The notes under the pieces are model-generated. The model was not told the origin of the DNA. It was given only the letters and a program-made list of their open reading frames with translations, and made no database searches. Shown one piece after another: positions 1,007 to 39,649 of a stretch of DNA of 64,000 nt (positions are counted from its first letter, which is position 1; the number at the start of each line of letters is the position of its first letter). A program made the position numbers and the translations under genes. Location: positions 19,072,651 through 19,136,650 of the forward strand of contig CM120647.1 in NCBI GenBank assembly GCA_051362555.1, read 5' to 3'. The stretch is from Lingula anatina. Lineage: Eukaryota; Animalia; Brachiopoda.

Positions 1007-1250
1007 GTAAAAAAAAAATTGTGTCGGTGAAATCTTATTAAAATGCTGCATAGTATGTAAGGACGCCGATTGCCCTTTTGCACACTGAGTTTTAGAGAAC
1101 ACCGTATGAATTGTCAAGTCTTTATTGTCGGCGTGCCTCTGAAAGTTTAGTATAGCTGTTGACAGAAAAGATGTTAGCTCCTCTGTCCTCTGAAATTCCG
1201 TAATTTTTGTCTTCATGTCAAAATCATATTGTCATTTCACATTTTAGAAG

Positions 1251-1810
1251 ATGATTACTTTTGCCATTTTTGCGTTAGTTGCGTTGGGTCTGGCAGCTGT
1301 AATGCAGGAAGCTGAATCTGACTGCTGTGGCACCAAATCGAAAGGGTTCTGCCCAGACTGCACGTTGGTGGGTCTACTAGTACCGGGGAATTTCATCGGG
1401 AAGTGCATTCAAAACACATTGACAACACGTGTTGTATTAGGCGAACTTTGCATTACAGGAAAAAATAATACCGCACATTTTAGTTATAAATGTGCGACAA
1501 AGCTAGAAGTCCAATTTTATATTGTTTATTAGAATTTGATACGTACAGTAAATGGTGGTCAGAAAATCATTCTGTAGATACATGTTTGTGTGCGTGCCAG
1601 TTCGTTTGTATGCGTGTGCAGTGAAGGTGGGGGTGTGCCTAGGAGGGGGATAGAGCAGAGAGAAAGAGAGAGGGAGAGAGAGTAATTGATTTACGATTTC
1701 CATTCCAGGGAACCCCTTACTGTTCATATGGAAAATGTAACATATTTGGCTGCAAATGTGAACGTTAATGTAGAGCGGACTGCGGCTCGAAAATAGAGTA
1801 TGATGAAATA

Positions 1811-1860
<50 letters not shown>

Positions 1861-3752
1861 GACTAACAGATCCGCTGGCTAAATATGGCCGACCCACTTG
1901 AAGACGATGCCGCTAGTCTCCTGATGGTCTCCCCGCCTCCACACGCGCCGTCCCTGCAGGTCCAATTAATCATCGGAGCCGAGATTTTATCCGTTTAATG
2001 GAGCGACTGCATGTTGATACGGAGAGACCGTCAGGGGATTAAAGGGCTTGTTTTTAAGCGGGGTAGACCATATTTTGTTGGCGGATCACTTTAATCGCAT
2101 TCAGAACAGATGACTTGTAGACGAACTGACCTGCGGACTTAATATGGCCGACCCCACTAAAAAGCAAGCCGGTTAATCTCCTGATGGCCTCACCGCCTCC
2201 ACAAGAGCCATTTAATGGATAAAATCTCCGCTCTGGGGTTTAATTGCCAGGACCCGTTGCAAGAAGCTATCGCTAGTTCTCCCTCTCGTTATTGTGTCGT
2301 TGTTACCATAGATATTTAACGACTGGTCAGACCACTCGCTAACTCTAGAGTTTCATCGTACCCATGCGTAATGAATGAAAAAGAAAGGTTTCTTAGTTAC
2401 CGTTGTCTACCCTTTGTCTGTCTATACAATATGGCGGCTGCCTTTCTTGATAACCGTACAGCCAGACGGTAACGTAGACTACGACGTTTTTATTAGGGCT
2501 GAAATCTATTAGAATATGCACAATGATGCAATTGATGAAAGGTTGGCTGTGACAAATCAGGGTACATTAATGGTATAGCCTTCCAGTGACATGACATGAC
2601 CCGTAAGGTGCTGCTGCCAGTCGACCAAAATAAGCACAAAAATGCAGCAGGGGGGAGGGCATGTAAAACTGGCCTCAGGCAGTAAAATGTCACCTTGATA
2701 TGAAAAATAACACATCAAATTAAAAGTAGATGAACAAATTAATTTCTAAAATTTATTAAAAATTTTCAAATGATCCAAAATTGAAAAAATAAACTCATTT
2801 TTCTCTTATATGCAAATCTTCTCGCTTCAAACTTACTAAACAAGGAAGGCCGGAAGTGACGTATAACCTAAAATTACCTTTTCTGCTTGGCCGTATATAG
2901 ATGCTATAAATTGTTTGCTCTTGACGTCATACTCAAAGACTCGACGCGACTGTACCGCAGTAGCTCAGAAATAAAACGTACATGTAGGAATTGGTGTTTC
3001 TACTTTGGCCAACATTTCATCTAAAAGTTTAAGACTTGAAATGGCATTTTAATGATACGCCGCAACAATATATAAAGAGCGTGCTTATGTACATGTATTA
3101 AACTTTAAACGGGTGACATAAAGGTGAAATATTGGTGAGCTATGTTTACTTTGCTGCTTGTGTGAACTGCACATTACGTGCATGTTCTGCCTTATCATCT
3201 TGCCAATTTGAACATCAGTGATGTACGTCCAAAACTTCTATATACAAGAACGCTCGTGGTGGACGTATTTGTATCTTAAAGCTCTCCCTATCAATCATAC
3301 CATCACAGGGTCCTGTGATAATTTATACACGGGTATTTATCTTGCTTTTCTGTACAAGTTCTTTTTTGAAATAATAATAATGATAAATATATTAACAATC
3401 ATTATTATTATTATTATTATATTATTATTATTATTGAGAAGTAAATGATTGTGAAAAAATGAATTATAGTTTTAAAAATAATGACAAAGAATACATAAGA
3501 TCTTGGCTGAGCTGGTACAGTATATGGTAGAGAATACCTGAAAAGTAATATGTTCACACGAATTAAAGTAGATGTTTGCATTATTTGTTAAGAAAAATAG
3601 ACAGATATGGATGGGTCTTTGCGCATCGCGTGGTCTATTCCTGTACTTGCACGAACGGGAAAAGGGCCGCAAAGGATGTCATGTTTGACGACATGGACGT
3701 CAATGATGACAGCAAGATTGCCCCACAGGAGTTCGATCCTAATCTGCAATAG
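1251..3752 (+). pseudogene. Mytimycin-like Cys-rich peptide/EF-hand precursor, copy A (in-frame TAA in exon 2)
   Basis: Exons 1251-1367, 1709-1797, 3593-3752 with GT-AG junctions in the same phases as the paralogs. MITFAIFALVALGLAAVMQEAES-DCCGTKSKGFCPDCTL/GTPYCSYGKCNIFGCKCER*CRADCGSKIE/KIDRYGWVFAHRVVYSCTCTNGKRAAKDVMFDDMDVNDDSKIAPQEFDPNLQ. TAA at 1766-1768 where B, C and D have TCA. Confidence 0.85.
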
Positions 3753-4679: not shown

Positions 4680-4760
4680 ACTTATTATATTATGTAGATT
4701 TAAGATTTTTGGTTGTGCATGTAAAGACGGCTACAGAAAAAGTTACGGCCCGATTGCTAC
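4680..4760 (+). pseudogene. Decayed exon-2 relic of a divergent mytimycin-like paralog
   Basis: Reads RFKIFGCACKDGYRKSYGPIAT, matching KCNIFGCACASSCREDCG with Cys codons changed to TTT/TAC. Followed by AC|GT and a CT-rich tract, as after the real exon 2. Confidence 0.7.
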
Positions 4761-5279
4761 GTTGGACAAACTCTTCTCCCCCTCTTTTTCTCGTTCTCTC
4801 TCTTTTTCCCTCTCTCCAAATTTAATGTTGTATATTTAAAAATAAAAAAAGAAAGAATAAAAAGGGTACATGGAGTCTGATGTTCTCAGCCGTGGTTATA
4901 CTCACAAGTGTCCGGGGACTAAACGCAGTCTTACTGATATCACCTTTCGCCCTCCTGAAATAAAATTATATAGAAATTATTTAAGATCGAAAATAAATAA
5001 AAGCTGAACGTTGGATAATAATGTACGAAGGGAGATAATTTCTCTTTAAAATTTCCCTAACCAACTTGCTCCAATGAACCACTTTCGCTTTCTTTGAACA
5101 ATGTTATTCCTTGTGGGTTGTTATTCCCTGTGGTTGGCAGGAGGCAATATCTTATTGCACGTGTTATAGAAGAACATCAAGGGCCACCGCGGATGATGAA
5201 GGCGGAGATATCGGTTCCGACCACAGTGATGTGTTCGAAATCTTTAATAAATGTGGATTAGTGTGAGCGGTGCTTGTAA

Positions 5280-8050
5280 AGGCCCGGTCACACCTACAGA
5301 ACGCACGAGGTACGCATGCATTGCGCATGAAAGTAAGCCAAATGCGCTGCTATGCGTCCAACTTCTGACATAATTTGCCAGAAAAGTGCGAGTTAATAGC
5401 AAATACATAGCGTTTTGTTGGCGTATTTTGCGTATAAAGGGCGCATGAAGAACGAATATAGAACAAACGTGTAAAAAAAATCCAACGTATGCACAACGGG
5501 TTTTTGGCGCAGGGAACGAACGACCCGTGCATTCAGCACGCACTGAGCGCAGAAATAGCGTTCCTCAGTCAGCAATGATCACGTGACTCGTTCTCTATAT
5601 ACACACACTGGACAAAAGAAGTGTCACCCCTACTGAGCCAATACTATGGGGGAGATAAATGACTGTGGAATGATATGCTCCTGGTATCATTTTATTAACA
5701 TCAAATTTCACAAAAAATCACAAAATGAGAACAAAATATACATTCTACCAAAATATGCAATTTCAAGTCCAAAATTAGTACTTAGTGGCATAGCCACGTG
5801 ACCTAATAATAGGTACCAGTCTACGAAGCAAGGATTCATATAATTGTCTGATGCGTTCGGGGCTTATGCTGGCCCAAGCATGAAACACTGAATATAACAG
5901 AGTTTCTCTGCTTGTTAGACGGGCATTTATCCAAAGTTTTGACATATCATTCCACACATTTTCTATTATGTTTTCAACCGGACTGAGGGCAAGCCACATC
6001 ACCCTGCGAATGTCCTGTTGGTCAAACCAATCATCAACTGCTCTGGTCCTGTGACAAGGAACATTGTCATCCTGGTGAACAAATGGATTATTCCTGTCAC
6101 CAAACATGTTAGTAATAGTTGGTAGCAAGCTTGACTCCAAAACATCGATATATTTCTAGTTATTCATGTTTTCATCAACCACTATCAATTCGCCCACGCC
6201 ATGGATGCTGATGCAGCCCCACTCCATGATGAATATGCTGCTCTGGGTTCGAAAATTAAGTACATGTGGTTTCGATGCTTTACCAGCAGTTCGCTAGCAT
6301 CGTACCCGTCTGCCATCAGAGGTAAGACCAAAGCGACAATCATCAGAAAACAATATGTAGGACCAATTGTCATGGACTGTCCAGTTCCAGATCTTGTTGT
6401 CCCTAGTTCACTCTACGTTGCCTGTTTTGTAACGCTAAAAGAGGTTTCAGTCTTGCTACCCTGCCGTACACTCTATGTAACCGACGCCTACCAATTATCA
6501 CAGACACATTTTTATGTGTGAAATTGTTCCACTGTGTTGTCAACTGACAAGCAGTGTCGAATTTTGACAACCTGGACATCAAAATCAGTCGTCGGTCTTT
6601 ACGGCCAGTAGTTTTTCTTGGACGACCCATCAGAGACAATTTGTCTCTTGATCCAGTGTTTCTATACTGAGACCAGACCCTCTGCACGGTTCTGACTAAA
6701 CAATTCAATTGTATCGATATACTGACATTGCTTATATTCCGCCTCTTCAGGTTAATAACTTGCACCTATAGCCGTTAGATAATTACCTGTATCTTGCCAT
6801 ATTGGAGGAAGACAGGAATAATATTTGCTGTACACGTACAAGTCCAACAATACAATTCCATGGTATAGCGGTTTTATACTCATTAGTCACATAATAAGTA
6901 GACCAGGCATTATAAGTACCCAAGATCTGCCTACTTTCATTACTCTGAGTTAGGGGGTGACACTTCTTTTGTCCAGTGTGTGTAAAAACTTCAGATAATG
7001 TAAAAAGCAACCAGTGAAATTTGTTTTCTTGGATACACATTTTATCGTTTTCTTCATTGGGAAGGTGATATTAAACAGCAAAATAATAAAGAGTAGCATA
7101 AACATGATATACACTGTCAATGTAATTGTTTTCCAATTCTAACCGACCATTGTTTTTAGATAATTTTGATAAAAGTCAAGCTATAAAAATACTGAAAATA
7201 AGACCGTCTAAAATAACAAATTTTATCCTGATTGTGACTTTAATTTCAGTAACATCACATGTACATAATGTACCGGTATTTAGCACCACTGTGTATCATT
7301 TAATGTCTTATTTAGTCTATGTTTAAATGATCATTTCAAAGGGAAGAAAGAGGTGGTCTTGCCATAGAACAGATCCGGCTTCAGATAATTTCTGTTTTTT
7401 CCCTTATGGTCTTGCTGCTGCCAATGACGATGCGGGTGTCCTCTAGATATCGGCCATTTCTCCACTCACCACGAGCAAACTCTTGATCCAGGTTCTCGGC
7501 AACGTCAAGCTGCTGGTTCTGTATTCGTGGATGCCGGATCCTACTAAGGTTGTGGAAGATTATGCATGCTATTACAATCTTTTTAATAGTCTTGGGCTTC
7601 TGCTGCATTGTCCTAAGTAAAACCTGGAAATGGTTCGCCAGAATGCTCCTGATGTCACAGACTTGGTGGAGTGCAAGTTCCATGACGTTATGAGAATGTT
7701 GGAGAACTGAAGTTTCGTATTCTAATCGCAGTCTGTCAAGATTTTCCATGCAGCGGTTATTCAACAAAAGTGGAAAAGTGATGCAGCTACATAGGACCCA
7801 TTTATCAACACACCATGAATACATGCTAGGCTCGGGACACGCATGCTCGGGACACACTAGGAACAGGACAGAGGCGCGCTACAATAACGTTGGCTGCGCT
7901 ATAAAGTCGTTCAACGTTCGTTCTGATTCGTTAGTGATTCGTTTAGCATCCGTTTATAGTTGCTGCATGTTCGCTACACATGCGTTGAAAGCATGCTGTA
8001 GGATTAATAGACTGACAAACTCATGCAAGGAAAGAAAATTCGAATAAAAA
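5280..8050 (-). mobile_element. PIF/Harbinger transposon remnant, apparently interrupted by a Tc1 element
   Basis: TAA|AGGCCCGGTCACACC terminus at 5280 with CpG-rich subterminal sequence. The minus-strand fragment at ~7380-7660 (ILANHFQVLLRTMQQKPKTIKKIVIACIIFHNL) resembles the Harbinger DDE transposase C-terminus. The second TIR was not found. Confidence 0.6.
5602..6982 (-). mobile_element. Tc1/mariner element with degraded DDE transposase
   Basis: TA|CACACACTGGACAAAAGAAGTGTCACCCC ... GGGGTGACACTTCTTTTGTCCAGTGTGTG|TA. Frameshifted fragments include an HTH-like region (GRPRKTTGRKDRRL) and HQDDNVPCHR...SPVENIIENVW. Confidence 0.92.
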
Positions 8051-9925: not shown

Positions 9926-10821
9926 GCATTATCCAAGGCATATGGTCTTATACAGGTGCTCTTAAAAAGTTTATAAACTTATAGCTTTTCATTTGAAAAA
10001 CCTATTCCTAAAATAGATCCATTTCGTCTCCCAATTTTTGAGTGAAACTATCATCAATCTCAAATCTCCATTTACTGCATTATTTTCTCTCATGTTGATC
10101 AAAATTATTTACAAATGAATTTTATTTACAGTGTTCATCCCAATACACCAACTAATCGTAACCTGTACAAATAACATGGGAACCCGGCTTTCCATTCCAA
10201 GGCGAATGACTTGCCCACCCTCTGTTTGTACATGTTTTCTTGTAATGGTAATGAAACGCAATCTTTAGAAATCTTTTCTAGCCAAAAATCAATGAACTTT
10301 CAACCGGCGAACAAATATCAAATGTGCACCAACTCTTTATATAATGAAATGTTCCCTGTGATTTTATTTGTTGTGGGTTAATAGGCAACATATATTCCAC
10401 TTCACCGGCGAAATTAAACAGAATACAGTGTCACCGATTCTTTAAACCTAGCTTTGGGGGTTTACAGTAAAAAATTGTCACCAGACCTCTGTATCCTTAT
10501 TATGTCTACTGATTATGTTCAACCGGCTAAAGCTACATTTTTTTTTTAATGCGCATGCGTAAAACCTAAAGATTTAATGTCTTTCTGACGAAAATTATAT
10601 CCACAGACGAAAATCAGTCTCAAACATGCATTATCTTTCTACGCATTGCCGAACTAGTCTGTAAATGATAATTCAGACTTCGGTAAAATCATTGTGAAAT
10701 ACTTTTACCAGTACATAACTTTGATGTTCTTTCCACATGCTTTGATCTCTTCTGAATACAGGCGTGTACACTACTTCAAAAGCTGATGCCTTGACTGAGC
10801 TTGCACTGCTGTTGAAAACGG

Positions 10822-10894
10822 TATTAATAGTTCAAACTGTGGACATTTTTCAATCATTTCGAGACTGAGAGAGAAGTAATCAAGGATTACTCAG
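10822..10894 (+). promoter_or_regulatory. Putative TATA-like box and 5' non-coding exon of copy B
   Basis: TATTAATA at 10822, TCAATCATT at ~10850, CAG|GTAAAA donor at 10895 and TTTCAG|AAG ATG acceptor at 11122. Confidence 0.65.
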
Positions 10895-11125
10895 GTAAAA
10901 ATTCTGTCCAAGATATTTTCTTTAATTTCTACATAGTTTTTCACGATGCCGATTGCCTTTTTGCACTTTGGGTTTTAGAGAACACCATATAGTATGACAT
11001 CTCAAGTCTTTATGTCAGCGTGCATCTGAAAGTTTAGTATAGATGCTGACAGAAGAGATGTGAGCTCCACTGTCCTCTAAGATTCCTTTGTGTCAACTCC
11101 ATGTTGTCACTTCACATTTCAGAAG

Positions 11126-12923
11126 ATGGCTACCTTTGCCAATTTTGCGTTAGTTGTGTTGGTTCTGGCAGTTTTAATGCACCAAGCTGAATCCGACTGC
11201 TGCTTTACAAAGAAGAATACTTACTGTGCGGACTGCACTAAGGTGGGAAGCGCATTCAGAACATATTCAGAACACAAATTTGGTATGAGGCGAACTTTGC
11301 ATTACAGTGGAAAATGATATCATACATTTTGGTTATAAATGTATAACAAAGCTAGAACGCTATTTTTTATATTGTTCATTGAAATTCTATACGTAAATGG
11401 TCGTAAGCAAATCATTCTGTAAGGACGTGTGTGCCAGTGCGTTTGTATGCGTGTGCAGTGAAGGTGGGGTGTGCCTAGGAGGGGTATAGAGCAGAGAGAA
11501 AGAGATAGGGAGAGAGAGTAATTGATTTACGATTTCCATTCCAGGGAACCCCTTACTGTTCATATGGAAAATGTAACATATTTGGCTGCAAATGTGAACG
11601 TTCATGTAGAGCGGACTGCGGCATGACCATAACGTAAAATGAAATCTCTCTCTCTCTCTCTCTCTCTCCCTCTCTCTCTCTCTTGGAGATAGATAGTGCG
11701 CATTCAGACCAAATGAGAGATAAGCTCTCTCTATCTCGGAGCTGAGATTTAATCCGTTTCATGGCGCGTGTGTATGTAGAGACAGGAAGACCATCAGGGA
11801 ATTAAGGGGCTTTTGCAATTGTCGGCGGATCAGTTAGAGCGCATTCACAACAGATGATCTGCGGACTAAATGTGGCCGACCCCATTAAAATAAAGCCGCT
11901 TTATCTTCTGATGGCTCCACTCCCCCCACAAGAGCCATTAAATGGATTAAGGCTTCGTTCACATGCAATGTCTATTTTCTAAATTCTATTTTCTATTTTC
12001 GGTATGTCTTATGATCACGGTCTGTGCACTGAATATCCTGCGGCGTAATTACTGGCAGCGCGAGCCAGTTACTATAAGTTACTATAAGTAACTGGCTCGC
12101 GGTGCCAGTAATTACGCGGCGGGATATTCAGTGCACAGACCGTGATCATAAGATAGCGCGAATAGAAAATAGAATTTAGAAAATAGACATTGCATGTGAA
12201 CGAAGCCTAAATCTCTGTTTTGGAGTTTAATTGCTAGACTCCTGCAGGGATGGCGCGTGTAGAGGCGGGCAGACCGTCAGGGCACAGGTTGGCATTGATT
12301 ATAAGTGGGTTGAACATGTTTGATCCGCGGGTTAGTCGGCAGATAAAGTTGTTCTGAATGTGCTCTCGATTCTCAGGTCGCGGATCATCTGTTCTGAATA
12401 TATACGTACTATAAAGCGCTGCTGTATTCAGCACTGCTGAAATGTATGTTACTTTCTCTGCTTGGCCGTAAATAGATGCTAAGATGGATTGCGCGTGACG
12501 TCATACTCGAAGACTGGGCATGACCGTACCGCAGCCATTCAGAAATTAAACGTGGGGATTGGTGTTTTCTACTCTGGCCAACATTTCATAATGCATCGAG
12601 CAGTTTAAGGCGTGAAATGGTATTTTAAAGATACGCCGCAACAATATATTAAGAGTGTGCTTATGTATGTATTAAAGTTTAAAAGGGTGACATATAAGTG
12701 AACTATGTTTACTTTGCTGCTAGTGTGGTCTGCGCATTAGTTGCATGTTTTGCCATATCATCTGGCCAATTTGAAAAGCAGTGTTGTAAGCTTAAACCAT
12801 ATGTATCCAAAAGCACTCGTGGTGAACGTATTATATTTTAAAGCTCTCCCTATCAATCATATCTTCTATCAGGTGATTTTCAGGGGTATTTCTCTGGCTT
12901 TTCTGTACACGTCCCCTTTTTGC

Positions 12924-12954
<31 letters not shown>

Positions 12955-13279
12955 GTGATGAAATAAATGATAGTGATAAATAATGAATTACAATGTTAAA
13001 TATAATGATAAAGTAATGATAAAATATCGATATTAATAAGGTCATCGCTGATCTGGTATAAGGTAGAGAATGTCTAAAAAGTAATATACGAATTCAAATA
13101 GATGTTTGCATTATTTGCTTAGTAAATTAGTCAGCGGGTGGTTCATGTCGCGAAAGGAGAAGACTACCTGTACTTGCTCAAACGGGAAAAGGGCCGCCAA
13201 GGACGTAGGCTTTGACGACATGAACGCCAATAATGACGGCAAGATTGACCCCAAGGAGTTCGACCCTGATCTGCAATAG
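11126..13279 (+). CDS. Mytimycin-like secreted 12-Cys peptide precursor with C-terminal EF-hand, copy B (120 aa, intact)
   Basis: Exons 11126-11242, 11545-11633, 13123-13279. MATFANFALVVLVLAVLMHQAES-DCCFTKKNTYCADCTK/GTPYCSYGKCNIFGCKCERSCRADCGMTIT/KLVSGWFMSRKEKTTCTCSN-GKR-AAKDVGFDDMNANNDGKIDPKEFDPDLQ*. The signal + 12 Cys + EF-hand layout and the DCC..DCT..GTPY..NIFGC motif match mussel mytimycin as recalled. Confidence 0.9.
11951..12207. mobile_element. Almost fully palindromic Harbinger-type MITE in intron 2 of copy B
   Basis: TAA|GGCTTCGTTCACATGCAATG ... CATTGCATGTGAACGAAGCC|TAA with ~120-bp inverted arms. Absent at the homologous site in copy A. Confidence 0.85.
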
Positions 13280-14365: not shown

Positions 14366-17300
14366 ACATTTTAAGATGTTCTTCGATTTTAAGAATTATA
14401 ATTACAAACGGAATCTAAGGGTGCAATCCCAACGAAACTATCATTCTACGTAGATTGATCCAACTCCACCAGGATTCTCACTGTATGCAATCAGATTAGC
14501 AATCCTGGAGCTGCTAGGGGGTGATTAACTTTCGTGTGAACTCAGCTTCTAGAATCTTTATCATTTCGTTTTGAGTGCGACCGAAACGCACGTGAAAATT
14601 ATCCATATAGGTTGTATTGTTTCCGTGAACTACTCTTTACAATGTGGGGAAGTTTGGGGATATGCAATGGCTACCCTTTCCAACTCATGAACACCATACA
14701 TGTTTCACATGAAATATTGAATAAAGATTGGAACGCATAAAATGAGAGGACGCCTATAATGACATTTAATCGAATGGCCTGTGCTATTATTTTTGAATTG
14801 TATAAGAAACTGATAAAAGTGGTTTTACGCTCCATCAAGGCTACCTTTAAGCGCACACTGATTATTTTCAAAAGAAAAAAAACGGGTGTTGCAATAAAGT
14901 ACGAAATTTTTTGGATTGCGGGAGAATCCCGTTTTTCTAGAGACCGATTGCGGTTCACGTCCACCCTGTACTCATGAATATCAAGTCAACAGTTTCGTAA
15001 AAAATCAGTGATAATCGACTTTTCAAGACTGGATGAATAGGTCGGTTCAAGAAAGGCAACTCCACCCTCCAGCGACCAATAACCGTACCACCAGCGTGAG
15101 CGTGGCGGTAGACATGGGCTTAATCCCGACCCATCTCGTACGGCCTCTGCCAGTTCCGCGTCATGGGGGATACAATTAACCGTTACCGTTTCTTCACCTA
15201 GACTAAGCCAAATGAGTTGCAGGGGAAAATGCCCTAATATGTTATTTCTGATGTTATCATTGTGAGGAAACGTTTTCAGAGTTGATAGGGAAAGTAAGTA
15301 TTATTTTTGATTTAATTTATTTTTTTATCTACTGTTTTACATTTCTTTTTTTGTTCAGGAGTTACTGGGTGTATTTACCTTGATTATTTAATTTAAGCTC
15401 TTCGTATAATTATTTGTTTTCTCAATTTCTGTTATTATTTTATTTCTGCAACTGTCTTTATTCAGTTTTTAGTTCACCATAAAAAAGATCAATTAACTTC
15501 TACTCCCACCGTTTTGAATAGTGGTAAGCAGGTGTGCAATACAAAAATGTACTTGATATACCGCAGACACAAACCACATGTATGATATACTATGTATCTG
15601 TTATGGTGTAAGATAAATTAACATATATAAGTCACTGTGAGTTTGAAAAAAACTTTCTGGACATACAACAGCAGCCTGTCTGTTATGAAAAAAAAAGAAC
15701 ATGTTGGTTATACAGACATCTCGTCGATTACAGAACTATACAAACGTAATTTCTTTTAACATATTCTTACATTACAAAAAACTTAACAGTCGGTTAAAGC
15801 TCTGCTCTGATTTACGTCTCATGGTAACTTGTCGTCATAGAAAAATACTGTTACAACAGAGATATTAATCATATTGTGACGACACTGAAAATGAATATCC
15901 TTTCATTTTATGTGGCCTTATTACACTGTCCCCAGGAAAAAAGTTCATAATCCGTATTTCTTTATTAGGTTTCGCCTTTCAGATAAATGCGTTTAGTGAT
16001 AAGGTGCTGTTAGTACTGATTGTGATATTTAGTACGCATTATCAAACCTGAAATAATTCGGCAGAAGAGATAGATTTGGGAACGGTAGGCGCATTAGCTG
16101 TAGTTATATTAATCTATTTTTTATATACCAATATAAAGACTAAGATATCACTTCAACTAAAATTTCTAAAAAAAAGAACCGTTAGAGCATAATGGTCTTG
16201 ATTAGAACTAAACTATACCACACTGACTAAATATACTATACTACACTAACAAAACTTCTCTAAAACTGTACTAAAGTTACCCATGGTGCAAGCCTCTCGA
16301 AAACGAATCTGCTGAAATCAACAGTGGCGTGTTGAATTTGACATTAACACGCGCTGCTTAATGGCAAAAGCAGTAACATCGGCCTAGGTAATTCTTCACG
16401 ACGCGTTCCCAATGAAACTACCGTACTAGGCAGAATAGGTTCTGGTAGACAGATCGATCCAACTCGGCAGGATTTTCGATGAATGCAATCTGATTAACAC
16501 TACTCTTCTTGTTTCTAGCGTACGCGCATAATAAACAGCTTTTATGCATTGTACTGAGCGCAGGGATAAAGAGTTGATCTTTTCATCTATAGCATTCATC
16601 AAGAATCCCCGCCGAATTGAATCGATATACTTAATTAATACGCACCCTTAGACCGCATTCAGATTCACACACCGTACAAGCTGGGTCGACCCAATTCTGC
16701 CGGGGTTTCTCGCTATTTAAAGCACAACCATCTTGATCAGCTTAACTGTTTGACACCCCTCCCTAAGCAGCTGGGGGTAATTAACCGTGAGAGTATTAAG
16801 CTCTTTCCATTGATTGTACTTTAGCATGAATCTGCCGTAAAATTGAACCGACCCAGCTAGTGCGATGCGTTAATCTGAATGCGCCCCTATTTTCATCTTA
16901 TTGCATGGCTATTCAAAAGACATCGAAAGGCTAACTCCAGAGTATAATTCAATTTTGTCTTACAGGGTGTCCCAAATATGTATCTGTAGAATATCTTTTT
17001 ACAACCAAATGCATTTTACAACCGGTCTGTATCCACCCCAGAGACAGCCCCAACCTAAAAGCACCAAACTTAGGGCGCATTTCCATAGATTTTAGATCGA
17101 TCTATCCCCGTCTCACTAGATTACTGTCAGATAATCCGGCTTAAATGTCCGTCCCGCCTACTACAATCTGTAAGGCTATTTAGCGTGAACCCCCAAGGAG
17201 TTAGGTCGATCCAGTTGGATCGATCTAATCTCTGAGAATGGGGTCTTAGAGAGGGCCCATTCACATTCCTGATAACACATTAATCAATCCCCAAAGTTTA

Positions 17301-17684
17301 AGGGAGCATTCAGATTCATACACTTTACCAGCTGGATCGATCCAACTCTGCGGGGATTCTCGCTTAAATACAGCCATTGTTATAAACTTGATTGTCTGAC
17401 ATGCCCCTCTCGAGCAGTTAAGGGCTAATTACCTTTTGTATGTGCTCAAGAGGGGCGTGTCAGACAATTGAGCTGGTTACATTGACTACACTTTACCAAG
17501 AGTTGGATCGATCCAGTTGGTACGTTGTTTGCATCTCAATGCCCCTTCCTCCGTCCTCACTGGCCAGGGCGCACTATAGTTAATTACCCTCTCACAATTT
17601 TTAGTAGCCGGCTAAGCTGACAGTAATCTAGTGAGACTCCCCACCGGGATAGATCGATCTAAATGTGGGAATGGGGTCAAAGAC

Positions 17685-20061
17685 TCAAACAAAGTCAACA
17701 ATGCAGTGACAGACTGCATCCCAGTATTCTTCAACTGTACGCTGGCCGGCACGGTATTGGGCTTTAAGCCTCTCTAGACGAGTGTCCAACCTCCTCCATT
17801 TAAGTTTTCTTGGGGCTGGGGCATCTCCTCTTCTAGCTCCTGTTATGGCCCGCTCGGTTTGAGCCTGGAGGTCCTTCAAATGAGTTATAAATCTCCACAG
17901 GGAGGGATGACGCGTACCGATCGCGAAGTTCAAGGCTCTGTGGAAACCTTAACAGACAAAATATAAAAAAACATTTTATTAAAATAAGTAATAAATTAGG
18001 CATATTTACATATCATTGCAAATTGTTTTAAAGCTGTCCAAGTTACTAATTATGAAGTGCAATTACGATCCTCAAGAGTGTTACGTTAATCGCATTACGG
18101 TTTGGATAAAATGTATTATTAAAGATGCACTAACAAAATACTACATCAATTCTCTCTATCAAGCAATAATCTTTCAAGAATGGCCTTATGCCGTCTTCAG
18201 AATACCCGAAAAGACAATATTACTTGTCGTTTTTCGGGTATTGTGAACACAGCCTTACTCTCCACGTGGTTGTTTGTGCGGTTATCCATTCCCCTGTCAT
18301 AAACATTCCACATAGCAGGTGGGAAATTCCCGTTCATATAATTATTTTGGAAGTAATTAATGAAATTTGTCAATGCCGGGAATCGGGCAACAAGGGCTTG
18401 CGTACGCCTGCTGTTGGTGAGGAGGATCAGATTTTGCCTTACCACAGCTACTGGTAAGAAACCAATTGACATATACTTTCGTAGACATCTCCTCAATCTA
18501 CGATTGTTTCTGTAATCTTGTGAAAGGCCTAGTTCTTTGATCCTGCGCCAAAGTGATTGGCAGAAGTGAAAATAACACCCCTGAACCGTTGCTCTGGGAA
18601 GATCTGTCTCGACTGCAGTTAAGAGGGCTTGCTCAAAGTCACAGACTATGAGTTCTGGTCGCCATCGGTGCCCAGTGACTTGATGCACCTAAGATAAGAT
18701 AAGATTATAGAGACCAGTTAGTGATTAATTTACAAATTTAAAAAATCACATATAACGAAAATTGGATTGCTTTTTGGGGAAAATGTATGAAATTTCCAGG
18801 TTTCAATATAGTTGCTAAGATATAGTTGCTTAAGCTCTATTTTTGCTCTTTAAATGAGAAACAACAGATGAATAAAATTTCTTTAAATTCTGTTTTGATC
18901 CTTCAAAGGTTAAAAGTCTTCAGTTGGTCGGTAAGAAATCAAAAAGACCATGTGCAGGGTGGGTACATGTACGGTAAAACAATTTCTTCTGTTTTTGCTT
19001 CTAATCTATCTTCGTAAATGGCATTTACCTTCCTTCTTATCGCCTGCAGAACTTGGCGATAATGCCCAACAGTTCTCCCATCCATTAGACAAGCGGCCAA
19101 AAGGATGACTCTCCCTCTATGCTGCCCATGAACAGTCAGGCACTGGGTGTAAGGGGCAGGACAACTTTTAAATGTGGCGTCCATATACACCTGTCTGCAT
19201 GTCTGCAGAACCTCTATGTTGGCATCTGTGCCAAAGACAAGGACCCCCCATGCATTATCCTGATGGATTACGTTTTCCTCTCCTCGCCATGTCTCTGCCC
19301 AGGGACCTAATTGAATATATAATGAAACGAAATGATAATGTTTACACATACATATGTTACAAGGAGGGTGGCCAAAAAAGGAGACATTTTCTGTATTTTA
19401 ATCATGCGCCTCTAATATTGTAGTGCATTTTTACATTGCTACAGCTGTGAACTTTAAATGTGTTAGTTATGATTTTAATGGGATGTGCGGCAACATTGTT
19501 TTATTTCTGGGTTTGAATTGTTCAAACAGTTCCAAATGTAATCATGGATATGCTATATCGCAAAAATTTGAGGGGCCTTTTCATTATTTCCAATTAACAA
19601 ATGCTAGGCCTACCTTGAAGGATGACATCATTAACCTGCCTGGGAACAGCAGGCATATGGGCTGTGCGTGCTCGGTGGAGCGATGACCGCACATTATGAT
19701 ATTCAGGGACAGCTGCCTGGTCACCCCCACCTTGAGCATGTTGTCTTAGGACGGCGTCGTATGTCCGTTTTATGGGAAGGGTGACATCGTCTTCCACTGC
19801 ATTTTTCATCTCCTGGATGATTCCACACTGCTCTATCATCTCTCTGTCGTCGGCATGGTTGTGGGGAGACTCATCTATGATTCCGATTCTTCTCGCCCCA
19901 ACATCCACGTTAAAAAGATTCGTTTTTAACGTTGCCCGGCAAGTCTTTCGCCAGCACCGCCAATGAATGGAATTGGCAGTGACTTTATTTTTTTGATATT
20001 TATTTTGCCCATGAATTAGGACCATGCCACCACGACTTCCTTTTGTTACGTAAGTCGCCAT
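17685..20061 (-). CDS. MULE transposase (FLYWCH zinc finger + DDE), 4 exons, 472 aa
   Basis: Exons 20061-19614, 19306-19029, 18688-18259 and 17947-17685 join in frame via GT-AG introns with no stops. Motifs: WRCWRKTC..HNH, YMDATF, CDFEQAL, GCYFHFCQ, RTNNHVES. Confidence 0.92.
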
Positions 20062-25526: not shown

Positions 25527-27833
25527 CTATTGCAGATCAGGATCGAACTCCTGGTGGTCAATCTTGCCGTCATCATTGGCGTCCATGTCGTCAAACACAA
25601 CATCCTTAGGGGCCCTTTTCCCATTCTTGCAAACACAGGCAACGATTTGTTTTTTCGTTGAATACCACCCAGTCGTCGACACTCTAAACAAATAATGCAA
25701 AGATCTTAATTTCTTGTGAACATATTATTTTTCAGATATTATGTACCAGAGATGTCAGCGATGACGTAATTATTAATATTGACTCTTTATTATTATTTTT
25801 AATATTGTAAATCATTATTTTCACAAACATTTATTTCATCGCCACTACTATTTTTATTGCAAAAAAAAAAATGAATGTGTTCAGAAAAGCCAGAAGAAAC
25901 TTGTTATTATGTAATAAAATTATCACAGGACCCTGCTGGAAGATGTAGAAAAGGTAACATACATATACAGTTTAAGCAGTGCCTCGGGGTGAATGTAGCA
26001 GAGATAGGTAACTAGCACATTCAAGAAAGATGATCCACGGACTGAGAGCACTTTCAGAACAAGTTTATCTGCGGACTAACCAGCGGATTGGATATATTTA
26101 ACCAACTTAAAAGCAATGCCTGATGACTCATGTGGAGGCCGTGAGACCATCAGGTGATTAAGCGGCTTGCTGTTTGATGGGTTCGGCCATATTTAGTCCA
26201 CGGATCAGTTAGTTTGCAGATCATTTGTTCTGAATACGCTCTAACTGATTCTCCGACCCCGCTCGAAAGTAATCCTCTTAATTCCCCGATGGTCTCTTCG
26301 GCTTTACGTGCACATTTAACGGATTAACTCTCGGCTTCGAAATAGAGAGGGCCTATGTATAATATGTTCTGAATGGATAATATCTATCTTCAAGAGAGAG
26401 AGGGGGTCCCATTCAGAATTAGGGACTTACTATGTTCAAATATGGCCGACCCACTTGAATACTTTCCCACGTGGTATCTATTCAATGTTTATTAGCGGGT
26501 TAGACGGCAAGCTTTGGCGTGGGTGGCCGTCGGACTAGTGAGTCCCTTATTCTGAACGGAGAGAGAGAGAGAGGGAGAGAGATTTCTTCTTACGGTTTGA
26601 TCTCGCTGCCGCAGTCCTTCCTACATGAACGTTCACATTTGCAGCCAAATATGTTACATTTTCCATATGAACAGTAAGGGGTTGCCTGCAATGTAAATCC
26701 GGAATTAATATCCCTCTCTCTCACTTTCTGTAATCATAAAATGCACGGACACACACACATACGTACACAATTGATTTCTGACGATCATTAACGCATCGAA
26801 TTTCAATAAACTCCATGAATATAATAGAAGATAAGAAAAGATGGCCGACAGCTGCAATCATCTGTAAGTGCTCTGTGAAACTATGCCCTAAAGCACAGTA
26901 ACCACTGCACAAAGATCTTTCTTATCCAGAGGTGTAAAATAGACATTTTTTTAAAATTAAAATTAAAGATACACAGAACAGATTTCCTAAAAGCTTTAGG
27001 TTAAAATTAAGAAACATGCAGAAAAAACTCCACTTAACCTGTGGACCGGGAAAATCTCGAACAAACAAACAAAGGAAGACAAGATGGAGGACTCTTACAA
27101 CATCCTTGGTGTTCAACCTGATGCAAGTACAGACGAAATAAGTGATGTCTTCACATCCAAAGTAAGCAAAATTACTGTACTTAATGATGGAAAACTACAA
27201 GCAGGCTCTGGTTGTTTCATTCCCCATAATGATAAAGCAATCTGTGCCAAAATGCAAAGAAACTACAGAAGAAGAGGGAGACTGTGACAAATGACACAAC
27301 ACAAAACATACCTGCTAGCTGATGAGAAATAATTGTCGCTTGAGAGCCTTACATCTATATATAATTGAAAGTTTGAAAAAAAAACACCCATCAATAGCAA
27401 TAGTCGTTTTATTCTGTGCTAGTTCCCTGTAATCATTCCATAATTTGCATATGTATTGGTATAGATTTGTATAGTTGTTATAAAGTTGTTATGATTAGAG
27501 TAGATAGCCTGTAAAAGTAACTTGTATGCATTGTAGTGCTCAATAAAGATTATTTAAAAATGGACTTAAAGCTTTATTGTAAATTCATACTAAAATGTAC
27601 GGTGTCATGTTCCCTATAATGCAAAGTCCGCCTGATACCAATCGTGTTGTGAGTGTGCTATGAATGCACTTAGAGAGGAATTATCCCGGTACTAGTAGAC
27701 TCACCTTTGTGCAGTCTGCGCAGATTTTCACAGTTGAATATTTAAATTTCGCGCCGCAGCAGTCGGATTCAGCTTGTTGTATTAAAGCTGCCAGACACAA
27801 CGCAACTAATGCAAAATTGGCAAAGAAAACCAT
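25527..27833 (-). CDS. Mytimycin-like secreted 12-Cys peptide precursor with C-terminal EF-hand, copy C (125 aa, intact)
   Basis: Exons 27833-27705, 26685-26594, 25683-25527. MVFFANFALVALCLAALIQQAES-DCCGAKFKYSTVKICADCTK/ATPYCSYGKCNIFGCKCERSCRKDCGSEIKP/VSTTGWYSTKKQIVACVCKN-GKR-APKDVVFDDMDANDDGKIDHQEFDPDLQ*. Canonical donors GTGAGT and GTAAGA. Putative non-coding exon ~28103-28060. Confidence 0.92.
27084..27161 (+). pseudogene. J-domain (DnaJ)-like first-exon fragment, antisense in intron 1 of copy C; deleted variant at 36850-36915 in copy D
   Basis: MEDSYNILGVQPDASTDEISDVFTSK followed by a GTAAGC donor resembles the J-domain start (YxILGV...AS..EI). No HPD exon follows. Confidence 0.55.
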
Positions 27834-28275
27834 CTTCTGAAATGTGAAGTGACAATGTGGAGCTGACACAAATGCAAAAGGAATCTTAGAAGACAGTAGA
27901 GCTCACATCCCTTCTGTCAGCAGCTAAACTAAACTTTCAGAGGCACGCTGACAGTAAAGACTTGAGATGTCATTCGGTGTTCTCGAAGTGCAAAAAGGCA
28001 ATCGACATCGTTGAAAACTAGGTAGCAGTTAAAGAAAATATCTTGGACAGAATTTTTACCTGAGTAATCCTTGATCACTTCTATGCCAGCCTCAAAAATA
28101 TTGAAAAACCTCCACAGTTTGAACGATTAATACCGTTTTCAAGTGCAGTGCAAGCTTCGTCAAGGTATCGGCTTTTAAAGTAGTGCACACGCCTGTAATC
28201 TGAAGAGATCAAAGCAGGTAGAACAGACATCAAAGTTATGTACTGGTAGAGGTATTTTACAATGATTTTACCTAA

Positions 28276-33730: not shown

Positions 33731-34043
33731 CTATTGCAGATCAGGATTGAACTCCTGGTGGTCAATCTTGCCGTCATCATTGGCGTCCATGTCGTCAAAC
33801 ACGACATCATTGGCGGCCCTTTTCCCGTTCTTGCAATGACAGGTAACGGTATATTTAAGCGTTGCGAACCATCCACTCTTTTTCACACTAAACAAATAAT
33901 AAAAAGATCTTAAATTCTTGTGAACATATTACTTTTCAGATATTCTGTACCAGCGATGTCAGCGATTACCTTTTATTAATATCGACTCTTTATCATTATT
34001 TTTAATATTTTAATTCATTATTTTTCGCAATTTATTTCATCAC

Positions 34044-34089
<46 letters not shown>

Positions 34090-37000
34090 GCAAAAAAAAA
34101 AAAAAAACGAATGTGTATAGAAAAGACAGAGAAATGCACGTGAATATGTGGTAAAATTATCATGCATACACTACGAGCGTTCTTGTATATAGATGGTTTG
34201 CTCGTACAACACTGCTTTTTAAATTGGCAAAAGTTGCACCTAATGCGCAGTTCACTCAAGCAGCAAGCAAACTTCAACAAATACACTCTCTACACATTGT
34301 TGCGGCGTATCTTAAAATACCATTTAAAGTCTTAGGAGACATTCAGAAAAGATTATCCGAATACTAACCGATCTGCCGAATAAATATTATGACCCACCCC
34401 TCTTCAAAAGCGCTGCCGCTGATACCCCTTCACACTGCCTCCACACGCGCCGTTAAAGCCTCTCTTACAACCCGTCGTGCGTGCTTAGAGATCGTGCGTC
34501 TTCGGAGTTCTCGTCAGACGTAGCGTTGTCGCAGGATGAAAATTAAATCGCAGCGGACGAAGTAGTAAGTACTTTATGAGTAGGTGTGTCGTGCTCTAAA
34601 CGTGGGGCCCGCAAGAGGTCTGTACGCCTTTTTTTGGCAGTAGGAAGAAGTAAGGAGCACGTACGATCTGTACTCGTGTCGCACACAGTGAGTGAGATAA
34701 TCATACGTGTATTGCAAGTGAAGCGTACGTTTTCAAAAACCGTACTTACGAAGTAAGAGAAACGTAAGAGAAACGTAATAAGCACGGAAGTGGAACGCAC
34801 GGATAATCAAAATAATATGAAAGGGAGCACCGAGTCTCTTCATCATTCACTGTTTTGGCTTCCAAAAAGGCACTTCCAAGAAGGATGCGCCATCGACTTC
34901 TACAGCTGCTAATGCTAGAGGAGGCCGAAGATCGTGACGCAATGCTGGCAGTGGTTGCTCGGGATCGCCTGCACTTTTATCGTGCTGGGCACGTGCGTCG
35001 TGTTAGTGTGACGCACTTCACAGGTATGGTAGTAGTACTCGCCACGCACTTTGGAAGTAAGATAAACGCACGGAAGAAGTGCGCTCACCCCCCTTTTTGT
35101 GAACACGTACATTGAAAGCAAGTAAAACTTACGAGTCTCTTGCGTGGTAAGTACGTCTTCGTGGTAAAATACCCCGTAATTTCTGCATGCTTTTCCTGCG
35201 TTACACGCACGCCTAGCGCACTTACTCAGTACTTTTGTCTTGCGTGCTACGAGCGTGCTCCAGGCGTTCTATTTGTCGCAGACAGGTCGTAGCGAAAAAC
35301 TGGCCGGCCAGTTTTCGGGCTGCGTGCTTTGCGTCGTGTTTGCGTCCACCAAAAATAGAACGCTCCACGTGTATCTTACTACTTGGCCAATTTTTTGCAC
35401 GCAAACCGCTCGTAGAAGCACGCACGACCGGTTGTAAGAGTAGCTTTAACGGATTAAATCTCGGCGCCAAGGTTTAATTGCTAGGCCCCTGCGGCGCACG
35501 TGGAGGCGGGGAGACCATCATGGAATTAGCGGCATTGCTTTTGATGAGGGATTGGCTATATTTAGTCGGCGGATCAGGTAGTAATCGAACCATGTATTCT
35601 GAATGGCCATGTAAACTGTTAGATGCATTAAGAGATGTTGACCAAATCCCTACGTTTTATTTCTGAACGACTGCGGTACAGTTGCGTCGAGTCTATGAGT
35701 ATGACGTTACACGCAATCCATCTTATTAGAATCTACTTACGGCCAAGCAGGAGAGGTAACATACATGTAAGCAGTGCCTCGGGGTGAATGTAGCAGAGAT
35801 AGGTAACTATAGCGCATTCAGAACAGATGATCCACGGACTGAGAGCACTTTCAGAACAAGTTTATCTGCGGACTAACCAGCAGATTGAATATATTCCACC
35901 AACTTAAAGGTAATGCCCTGATGGCTCATGTGGAGGCCGTGAGAACTTCAGGGAATTAGTCGGCTTGCTTTTTAATGGGGTTGGCCATATTTAGTCCGTG
36001 GATCAGTTATTTTGCAGACCATCTGTCTTGAATGCGCTCTAACTGATTCTCCTACCCCGCTTGAAAGCAATCCCCTTAATTCCCCGATGGTCTCCCCGTC
36101 TTTACATGCACACTGGTCATTTAATGGATTATCTCTCGGTTTCGAGATAGAGAGGGTCTATCTACCGGGAATCGTACATTCTGAATGGATACTATCTATC
36201 TTCAAGATAGAGAAGTTCCATTCAGAATAGGGGACTAACTAGGTTCAAATATGGCCGACCCACTTGAATACTTTCCCACGTGGTATCTATTCAGTGTTTA
36301 TTAGCGGGTTAGACGGCAAGCTTTGTCGAGGGTCGCCATATATGACCTTCGGACTAGTTAGTCCCTTATTCTGAATGGAGAGAGAGAGAGAGAGATTTCA
36401 TCTTACTCTGTGATCTCGCTGCCGCAGTCCTCTCTACATGAACTTGCGCATGCGCAGCCAAATATGTTACATTTTCCATACGAACAGTAAGGGGTTGACT
36501 GCAATGTAAATCGTGAATTAATAACCCGACAATGCATACTCATAAAAACACACGGGCACACACACAAGTACAAAATTAATTCCTGACGACCATTTACGTA
36601 TCGAATTTCAATAATCCATATAAGACAAGACAAGTTGGCCAACAGCTGCAATCATCTGTAAGTGCTCTGTGAAACTACGGTATGGCCTAAAACACCGTGA
36701 CCAAAAAGATATTTCTTATCCAAAGGTGTAAAATAGACATTTAAAGATACAAATAAAATATTCCCTACAAGTTTTAGGGTAAAATTAAGAAAAATGCAGA
36801 AAAAAACTCTGTGGACTCGGAAAATCTCAAACAAACAAAGGAAGACAAGATGAAGGACTATTACAACATCATTGGAGCAAGCACAGATGAAACAAGGGAT
36901 GCCTTCACATCCAAAGTAAGCAAAATTACTGCACTTAATGATGGGAAACTACAAACAGGCTTTGTAGCATATTTCACACTCATGAATCAAGCTACCAGAC

Positions 37001-38400
37001 AAAATATGACAAAGCAAGAGGATTGGATAATAAAGTCTCCTACAAAACTGATCAGTATTTTGGGCCAAATTTGGTAGCTGTACAGCGCAATTGTCAGTGT
37101 GCTATAGTCAGTATTAGCACAGTGAATCTAGTAAAAAGGTGGACTGAAGCCATTAAACAATACCACAAACCAGACACTGAAAACGAAGTAAATGGTGGCA
37201 GCGGGTACCAAATTGCACAGTTTAAAGCCCTTAGCTCAAGCAGGCTTCAGACCAGGTTATAGAACAACAAATCATATCTTTACTTTGAAATCACTAGTCA
37301 ACAGGTACGTATCTCAATCACAAAAAAAAAAAAAATATATATATATATATATTTACTGAAATTGCTTAAACTCGGAATCCGTGGCAATTTCTACCGTGTC
37401 ATAAAAAGCATGTATAGTAACACCAGATTAGGCATCTCGGTAGGTGTGGGTTATACTACCCATTTCTAACAACACTGGGAATTCGCCAGGGGGATAATCT
37501 TAGCCCCACTCTCTTTAATTTATACACGGATGACATCAAGGAGGCTTCCCATTCTTGTAACCAGTCCGATGCAATCAACGGACTGAATCATATCCTGTAT
37601 GCTGACGACCTTGTCCTATTATCTGCATCTAAAGATGGTCTACAAACCACCGGCACTACAAGCTTACTGTAAAAAGTGGAAACTAAACATAAACGAGAAT
37701 TATGATATTTAATGAAAAAAGGAAAATAGTAAGTGTCCCCGTTGTAATGGAATTGAAACGGAAACCCACTTTCTACTAAAATGTGAAGATCATAGTGACG
37801 GAAGAAGTAGACTCATGATACCTCCTGAAATGAAAACAGATCAGGAAAAAAAACAGTGGCTGCTCAGTCCAAAAAATAAATCCTGCTTGAGAGCCTTGCA
37901 TCTATATATAACTGAAAGTTTGAAAAAACGATCGATACACCATCAGTAGCAACAGTCGTTTTATTCTGTGCTACTTCCCTGTAATCATTCCATAACTTGC
38001 ACAAGCATATTTTGTATAGATTTGTATAGTTGTTATCAAGTTGTTATGATTAGAGTAGAGAGCTTGTAAAATGCAACTTGTACACATTTTAGTGCTCAAT
38101 AAAGATTAAATAAAAATGGACTTTAAGCTTTATTGCTTTATTTGTAACTAAAATGTACGGTATCGTTTTCCCTATAATACAAAGTTCGCCTGATACCTGA
38201 TACCATACATGTGTTGTGAATGTGCTATGAATGCACTTCCCGAATAAATACCCCGGTACTAGTAGACTCACCTTTGTGCAGTCTGCGCAGATATTCCCCC
38301 CCAAATATTTAAATTTCGCGCCGCAGCAGACGGATTCAGCTTGCTGTATTAAAGCTGCCAGACACAACGAAACCAACACAAAATTGGCAAAGGCAGTCAT
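33731..38400 (-). CDS. Mytimycin-like secreted 12-Cys peptide precursor with C-terminal EF-hand, copy D (125 aa, intact)
   Basis: Exons 38400-38272, 36498-36407, 33887-33731. MTAFANFVLVSLCLAALIQQAES-VCCGAKFKYLGGNICADCTK/STPYCSYGKCNIFGCACASSCREDCGSEITD/VKKSGWFATLKYTVTCHCKN-GKR-AANDVVFDDMDANDDGKIDHQEFNPDLQ*. TATAAATA at 38708-38701 and putative non-coding exon ~38679-38636. Confidence 0.92.
34457..35445. mobile_element. Non-autonomous TIR DNA transposon flanked by TTAA, in intron 2 of copy D (Harbinger- or Kolobok-like)
   Basis: TTAA|AGCCTCTCTTACAACCCGTCGTGCGTGCTT ... AAGCACGCACGACCGGTTGTAAGAGTAGCT|TTAA with a CpG-rich interior. The superfamily cannot be resolved by eye. Confidence 0.8.
37232..38110 (+). 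mobile_element. 5'-truncated, internally deleted non-LTR retrotransposon (LINE; RTE-X/CR1-like) in intron 1 of copy D
   Basis: RT motifs AQAGFRPGYRTTNHIFTL, GIRQGDNLSPTLFNLY and LYADDLVLLS, a C-terminal CPRCNGIETETHFLLKC, and AATAAA at the 3' end. Only the 3' tail survives in copy C (~27335-27560). Confidence 0.85.
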
Positions 38401-39649
38401 CTTCTGAAATGTGAAGTGACAACATGGAGTTGACACAAAGGCAAAAGGAATCTTAGAGGACAGTGGAGCTCACATCTCTTCTGTCAGCAGGTATACGTAA
38501 CCTTCAGTGGCACGATGACAGTAAAGACTTGAGATGTCATACGGTGTTCTGTAAAACCCAATGTGCAAAATGGCAATCGGCGAAATATAATACTATGCAG
38601 CAATTAAAAGAAAATGTCTTCGATAGAATATTTACCTGAGTTATCCTTGATCACTTCTCTCTCAGTCTTGAAATGATTGAAAAATATCCACAGTTTGAGC
38701 TATTTATACCGTTTCCAAGTACAGCGCAAGCTCAGTCAAGGCATCGGCTTTTGAAGCAGAGTAAACACCTGTATTCAGAAAAGATCAAAGCATGTAAAAC
38801 GGACATCAAAGTTATGTACTGGTACAGGTATTTCACAATGATTTTACCAAAATCTAAATCATCATTTTCCGACTGATTCAGCGATGCGCAGAAAGATAAT
38901 GTGTGTTCGAGACTGATTTTCATTGGTTGAAATTATTTTCACCAAAAAGACAATTTATCTTTAGGTTTTACACATGCGCATTTTAAAATCTAGCTTCATC
39001 TGCTTGAATGTAATCTTTAGACATAACACCATCAATTCATTAACGAATCAAATAATTCAGAGGTCTGGAGACAAAATTTTACTAAAGCTAGGTGAAAAAC
39101 GTGGTGGCACTGTACTCAGTATACTGTTTAGTTTCGCCGATGAAGTGGAATATGTTGCCTGTTAACCAACAACAAATTAAATCACAGGGACCATTTAAGG
39201 GGCTAATGCATATTTGATGTTTGTTCTCGGGTTCGAATTCTTGAAAGTTCCTTGAATTTTGCTAGAAAAGATTTCTAAAAATTGCGTTTGATTGTCACAA
39301 CAGAAAAAACGTACAAACAGAGGGTAGTTAAGTCAGTCGCAGTGTAACAGGAATGGACGTCCTACCGGGTAAGAATGAAGTGCGGGCTCCCATATGATTT
39401 GTACAGGTTAGGGTTAGTTGGTGTATTGGGGTTAACACTGTAAATAAAATTCATTTATAAATAATGTTGATCAACATGAGAGAGAATTGTGCAGTGAAAG
39501 GAGATTTGAAATTGACAATAGTTTCAGTCAAAAATTAAAAGACAAAATGGATATATTTTTAGGAATAGGTCTTTGAAGCGAGAAGCTATAAGTTTATAAA
39601 CTTTTCAAGACTACAGCTATGAGACCATCTGCCTTGGATATTGCTGGAG

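Follow-up and report, generated by a model that had tools for sequence, protein, structure and literature searches.

In mussels, the mytimycin precursor runs from a 23-residue signal peptide through a peptide with 12 cysteines and a dibasic site to an anionic extension with an EF-hand, whose function is given as unknown, and the family is stated to be restricted to Mytilida (PMC8004829, accessible text). This precursor plan has been in print since 2011. Diedel of Drosophila, by contrast, acts as a cytokine and as an integrin ligand, using an RGD motif for integrins (PMC9116668, accessible text), and its conserved Ile-Phe loop has been proposed as a protein-interaction site (PMC3307722, accessible text). 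No link between mytimycin and Diedel was found in the openly accessible literature, nor was any paper on “mytimycin-like” proteins.

The window, the 64,000-nucleotide stretch of Lingula anatina DNA analysed here, is AT-rich animal DNA with transposon relics. A scan of its six frames for C-x-C-x-N-G-K-R returned four occurrences, compared with none in 20 shuffles. These belong to four gene copies, A to D (Table 1), with GT-AG introns in phases 0 and 2, each of which encodes a leader of 23 residues, a region of 66-71 residues with 12 cysteines (67, 66, 71 and 71 residues in A, B, C and D, respectively), NGKR, a tail of 28 residues and a stop. The scan and the gene models bear out the description given in a first-pass annotation of this DNA, namely that all four copies carry NGKR after the last Cys pair followed by a 28-residue tail with an EF-type loop. 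Its charges (mature parts of +6 in B, +8 in C and +4 in D; tails of −5 in B and −8 in C) equal the side-chain counts recomputed here, which additionally give −8 for the tail of D and +4/−6 for the mature part and tail of A. The spliced models of C and D are letter-identical to XP_013415003.1 and XP_013398938.1, respectively, both uncharacterised NCBI proteins of L. anatina. Copy A contains an in-frame TAA in exon 3 (1766-1768) and is likely a pseudogene. The signal cleavage site of copy B was placed from the alignment with relatives.

Table 1. Positions of the four gene copies and their processing sites in the window
Feature	Position	Strand	Remarks
Copy A	1248..3752	+	exons 1248-1367, 1709-1797, 3593-3752; NGKR 3654-3665
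Copy A C-x-C-x-N-G-K-R	3642-3665	+	
Copy B TATA-like element and non-coding first exon	10819..10894	+	donor at 10895; equivalent copy D intron spliced in RNA reads
Copy B first coding exon	11123..11242	+	ATG 11126; predicted 23-residue signal peptide, CC and CxxC
Copy B exon with Diedel/mytimycin Cys core	11545..11633	+	scores 23.2 bits with PF13164 (Pfam cut-off 21.3)
Copy B last coding exon	13123..13279	+	AG acceptor, phase 2, open to TAG; mature-peptide end, processing site, tail
Copy B C-x-C-x-N-G-K-R	13169..13192	+	last Cys pair, predicted amide donor Gly, KR convertase site
Copy B 28-residue acidic tail	13193..13276	+	charge −5
Copy B 12-residue EF-type loop	13223..13258	+	non-canonical, with Asn as first residue; homologue of EF2 in the two-EF paralogs
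Copy C, intact	25527..27836	-	exons 27836-27705, 26685-26594, 25683-25527; NGKR 25625-25614; canonical EF loop
Copy C C-x-C-x-N-G-K-R	25637-25614	-	
Copy D, intact	33731..38636	-	UTR exon ends 38636; exons 38403-38272, 36498-36407, 33887-33731; NGKR 33829-33818; canonical EF loop
Copy D C-x-C-x-N-G-K-R	33841-33818	-	

An additional Cys-rich exon near 12720-12800 was considered and rejected, as it is missing in C, its frame is closed in A, and reads splice exon 3 directly onto exon 4. Copies C and D lie ∼6 kb apart in the window; their identical database proteins are recorded on contigs of different length, which suggests further identical copies or another assembly. Three relics of the Cys-core exon, at 4702-4761 (+), 40449-40393 (-) and 42982-42932 (-), are nearest to the Lingula paralog P0004 (named “protein Diedel” at NCBI); they have lost cysteines, no other exons were found with them, and they are likely decayed further copies. 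Broken transposons lie between the copies at 17685-20061 (-), 5775-6765 (-) and 7381-7857 (-), comprising a MULE with FLYWCH, a Tc1/mariner element and a weak DDE_Tnp_4 match. A near-perfect inverted repeat of 270 bp in the last intron of copy B (11945-12213) and repeats at 16540-17727, the latter with heavy cross-mapped RNA depth, are probably MITE-like elements. Elsewhere, at 46394-48217 (+), an exon with a TFIIS helical bundle domain (E 1.5e-17) is followed by a long Lys/Ser/His-rich frame; these exons presumably belong to an Elongin A-like gene.

RNA evidence came from seven raw-read runs of the same species. The joint between the UTR exon and exon 2 of copy D (38636-38403) was spanned by 7, 1 and 8 reads, and that between exons 2 and 3 (38272-36498) by 30, 14 and 17 reads, in each case in three of four runs. 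At the exon 4 acceptor of D, loose read ends were present at 33886 (6 and 10 reads in two runs) and agreed in 24 of 29 letters with exon 3 at its 3′ end. Reads on D were mostly 95-99% alike and thus stem from an allele or paralog resembling D. No change is listed in the NGKR codons (33818-33829) of these D-like reads among the 40 of 82 rows shown, and in the same rows the EF loop is kept except for Lys-to-Gln at loop position 7. The last exon of copy B had an RNA bin depth of 0 in three runs and below 1 in the fourth, so that expression was seen for the D-like transcript and not for B itself. Loose ends at 36496 and 36421 reveal exon 3 spliced to differing exon-2 ends, indicating several more expressed paralogs outside the window.

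A profile search performed without the EF-hand columns gave 257 proteins at E ≤0.001, of which the best 150 were listed, and an alignment of 145 proteins was assembled from 6 named proteins and 139 of 148 new matches, with nine long or fragmentary rows left out. Within this alignment, Diedel is matched by 107 proteins and EF-hand_1 by 70 (E 0.01); among the matches listed, 146 have a recognisable core, 70 of them with an EF-like loop. Mussel protein P0095 was matched by the profile at E 2.5e-7 (1.84 billion proteins), and its mature part, compared by eye, equals mytimycin L1 in the accessible supplement of PMC8004829. P0095 falls into a cluster with a Mytilus trossulus protein that aligns with copy C and end to end with the Lingula paralog P0003; for the full-length mussel member P0155, the pairwise E is 3e-11 with C and 2e-14, end to end, with P0003. 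The Cys array of the window copies is that of mytimycin type II (CC plus 10 single cysteines, a 10-Cys backbone with optional pairs), and the first eight cysteines are spaced as in mytimycin clusters A/I/J/K. Ahead of the CC motif, a hydrophobic leader of ∼23 residues aligns with those of relatives, and the KR is followed by an anionic tail of −5 to −8, as are the dibasic site and extension of mytimycin. The architecture of the window copies is the known mytimycin precursor plan, which had been overlooked in the first-pass annotation.

The same core also matches Diedel. Against a gathering cut-off of 21.3 bits for PF13164, exon 3 of B scored 23.2, exon 3 of C 25.5 and whole C 22.6, whereas whole D scored 17.3 and fell below it. 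Diedel (3zzo/3zzr) was the only PDB sequence match, at E 0.01; when the full alignment was used as a profile against the PDB, calmodulins dominated the result. A structure predicted from the 145 sequences (pLDDT 83, pTM 0.55) had Diedel 3zzr, a fold made up of SD1 and a disulfide-rich SD2, as its sole structural match, a weak one (Z 3.5, rmsd 4.1, 54 residues aligned; Foldseek E 0.64). The conserved Ile-Phe loop of Diedel is present in the window core, and RGD is absent from all four models A to D. Among 20 clusters looked up, 8 carried organism names: Mytilus, Lingula (3), Branchiostoma, two basidiomycetes and one ascomycete. The basidiomycete and ascomycete relatives (P0016, P0041 and P0133) have a secreted Diedel/mytimycin core with an EF-hand-type tail, which is odd for an “antifungal” family and could reflect either an old origin or gene transfer. 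An atlas search returned EF-hand and unnamed clusters only (first match 0.91, mostly Mollusca), and an atlas search with the Cys domain gave no usable match. As judged by these comparisons, mytimycin and Diedel look with high confidence like one family, with EF-hand-bearing members also in brachiopods, amphioxus and fungi. A survey of Lingula immune genes (Dev Comp Immunol 2018) may mention the genes described here. The accessions of the window genes and the terms “Diedel” and “mytimycin” were absent from the accessible supplement of PMC13425148, which may use other gene identifiers, so that their absence is uninformative on a shell-matrix role.

The KR of NGKR is the sole KR/RR in each of the four precursors. 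With no Arg at P4, the site does not conform to the furin consensus. Mytimycin in its native form, isolated from mussels, has a mass of 6233.5 Da (PMC6628016, accessible text), consistent with removal of the EF-hand extension, and by homology with it the precursors are very likely cut at KR, in support of the convertase cleavage proposed earlier. Amidation at the Gly immediately ahead of KR, present in all four copies of the predicted secreted precursor, is a quite probable further step. The codons GGG AAA AGG are the same in all four copies, silent sites and the broken copy included. The site was indeed kept throughout, as the term “invariant” had implied, but this has little meaning in four young duplicates: the neutral chance of zero replacement is 0.02-0.29 for G-K-R and 0.33-0.7 for Gly alone, and the invariance of Gly is not significant. 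Among the listed relatives, 15 of 49 have Gly immediately before the basic site, compared with 30 of 196 at positions −2 to −5 (p 0.014, with rows that are not independent); the background Gly frequency in this comparison is 6.8%. In the accessible supplement of PMC8004829 (File S4), 9 of 31 Mytilida rows have Gly before the basic run. The accessible text of that paper is silent on amidation despite these amidation-compatible residues.

Taken together, the enrichment and the mytilid rows make amidation appear recurrent but optional across the family. In a tree of 22 chosen rows, copies C and D are sister to two-EF Lingula paralogs (support 99/97), and within this clade Gly before KR occurs only in the subclade of the window copies, being absent from all 10 other members. 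The Gly is therefore likely derived, and amidation appears dispensable for the family and not family-defining. Gains and losses of amidation sites are known for other peptides (PMC9004410, accessible text). The Gly could have replaced an Arg of an R-K-R-type site, GGG being one transition from AGG. An amidation site and an anionic propiece are in themselves ordinary.

Each copy has one EF loop, which scores below the Pfam cut-off (B, EF-hand_5 E 0.0084), whereas sister paralogs keep a mytimycin-like pair. Judged by a PROSITE-like EF pattern, only the loops of C and D are canonical; B starts with Asn instead of Asp, and the loop of A is degraded, with Gly6 changed to Ser. Of the canonical EF-hand features (Asp1, Asx3, Asx5, Gly6, hydrophobic 8, Glu12, flanking helices and a partner hand), no copy has the partner or a full exit helix; the entering helix is retained and the exit helix consists of only 6 residues, Pro included. 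The tails are identical to EF2 of the paralogs at 14-18 of 24 residues but to EF1 at only 7-9 of 24, with 18/24 and 8/24, respectively, for P0003. EF1 has been lost relative to the sister paralogs, and the far better fit to EF2 indicates that ∼54 residues including EF1 were likely deleted. The supposedly “lone” EF-hand module is thus likely the retained second loop of an ancestral pair. The dN/dS ratio was 0.28 for the tail and 0.29 for the core (small counts from pairs that are not independent), and tail pN was 0.078 compared with pS of 0.24. Constraint on the tail thus seems similar to that on the core, which speaks against mere decay; with the lowest neutral rate, however, it loses significance (p 0.15), and, as pS is high in the variable region too, misalignment may have affected these counts.

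On balance, we favour a reading in which these brachiopod members of the mytimycin/Diedel family are processed to cationic defence peptides of 66-71 residues with 12 cysteines, cut at K-R and amidated at Gly, with a tail that represents the second half of an EF pair. Cleavage of the signal peptide would follow Ala-Glu-Ser, six disulfides would form in the mature peptide, and a PC1/PC2-type cut at K-R would precede carboxypeptidase trimming and PAM-mediated amidation to yield an Asn-amide. With six disulfides, the average masses calculated for the amide, free-acid and Gly-extended forms are 7370.5, 7371.5 and 7428.5 Da for B, 7800.0, 7801.0 and 7858.1 Da for C, and 7631.7, 7632.7 and 7689.7 Da for D; the tails come to 3080-3190 Da, and the full-length pro-protein to 10-11 kDa. 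The released peptide may have antifungal or antimicrobial activity, and the 28-residue tail would assist folding or sorting on the secretory route. In the cationic copies the tail may also mask charge, though as a side effect and not as a Ca2+-operated switch. A role in host defence is somewhat favoured by the homology to mytimycin, the cationic charge, the tandem birth and death of copies and the hypervariable flanks around a conserved core. Given the relatives in fungi and the function of Diedel as a cytokine and integrin ligand, an antifungal role is not automatically transferable. It is conceivable, if improbable, that the mature peptide is itself a Diedel-like cytokine or receptor ligand and not a microbicide, with amidation suited to a signalling peptide; the Diedel core with its conserved Ile-Phe loop (PMC3307722) and the presence of the family in fungi are consistent with this, but the integrin motif described for Diedel (PMC9116668) is lacking, the genes resemble those of mytimycins in their tandem duplication, broken copy and relics as well as in cationic charge and hypervariable loops, and the EF tail ties the window genes to mytimycin and not to insect Diedel.

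As for the tail, the first-pass annotation had proposed a Ca2+-dependent safety catch, in which the acidic tail would keep the stored cationic peptide silent and the catch would be engaged or freed when Ca2+ is bound. The nearly complementary charges of B and C, the constraint on the tail and a loop that is canonical in C and D and largely kept in D-like reads would suit such a device, but D is +4/−8, and B and A are without some Ca2+-loop residues. At the family level the proposal found no support: 37 of the 70 EF-bearing relatives among the matches listed have no KR/RR in the linker, and in 67 of those listed the Cys domain has a median charge of 0 (41/67 at or below 0, with crude regex boundaries) that does not correlate with tail charge (rho −0.09, p 0.46). 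Because marine invertebrate body fluid contains ∼10 mM Ca2+, a released precursor would meet no fall in Ca2+; moreover, the affinity of an EF-hand peptide for Ca2+ is weak unless it has a partner. A safety catch is hence very unlikely; more probably, the tail has inherited a role in folding, sorting or self-pairing from the ancestral pair. Ca2+ can induce isolated EF-hand peptides to form dimers, and a single hand that homodimerises to rebuild the pair, thereby dimerising or condensing the precursor for granule sorting, would accord with a constrained tail that retains EF2 and its entering helix; the short, Pro-containing exit helix, the degraded loop of B and the persistence of paralogs P0004, P0007 and P0008, which have lost both loops, make this doubtful. 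Loop decay in two of the four copies and EF loss in several paralogs could instead mark the tail as a remnant in decay without any Ca2+-related role, and the Gly as a neutral change at a polybasic site, in line with its non-significant invariance. The excess of pS over pN in the tail, and an EF2 that is 18/24 identical to the sister paralogs beside a highly diverged mature region, render this view unlikely. It is less likely still that the EF module is a luminal Ca2+ sensor gating storage or release of the peptide, of which the Lingula clade would be a minimal form with one self-pairing EF-hand and a newly gained amidation site.

The main value of the finding lies in the mytimycin-Diedel link and in the series of two-, one- and no-hand paralogs. 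The Lingula cluster contradicts the restriction of mytimycin to Mytilida, and through the link to Diedel a solved structure becomes available as a template for the mytimycin core, whose own structure is still unsolved. The role of the mytimycin EF-hand extension is stated as unknown in the accessible text of PMC8004829; because one Lingula genome holds paralogs with two, one and no hands, with and without the amidation Gly, this role becomes testable with a 28-residue synthetic peptide.

Compared with the described systems, the window copies differ from Diedel (Drosophila CG11501), a cytokine or integrin ligand with 10 cysteines and an RGD (PMC9116668), in having 12 cysteines and no RGD, and in carrying an EF-hand propiece, which accessible descriptions of Diedel do not include. 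The uncharacterised Lingula paralogs LOC106165319 and LOC106165320 share the Cys spacing and a near-identical EF2 but lack the Gly (N-K-R-R-R) and have an acidic spacer and a pair of EF-hands, both scoring above Pfam cut-offs. With mytimycin, the window copies have in common the 23-residue signal, the type II spacing CC-x-C-x2-C-x6-C-x4-C-x4-C-x-C, the C-x-C before the basic site, an anionic extension with an EF-type loop, a non-coding exon 1 and a multi-copy arrangement with pseudogenes. Unlike mytimycin, they are spaced 3, 3, 20-21 and 1 after the eighth Cys, have a predicted G-K-R processing site with no furin-type P4 Arg, occur in a brachiopod, and end in a tail of 28 residues with one loop in place of ∼75 residues with two.
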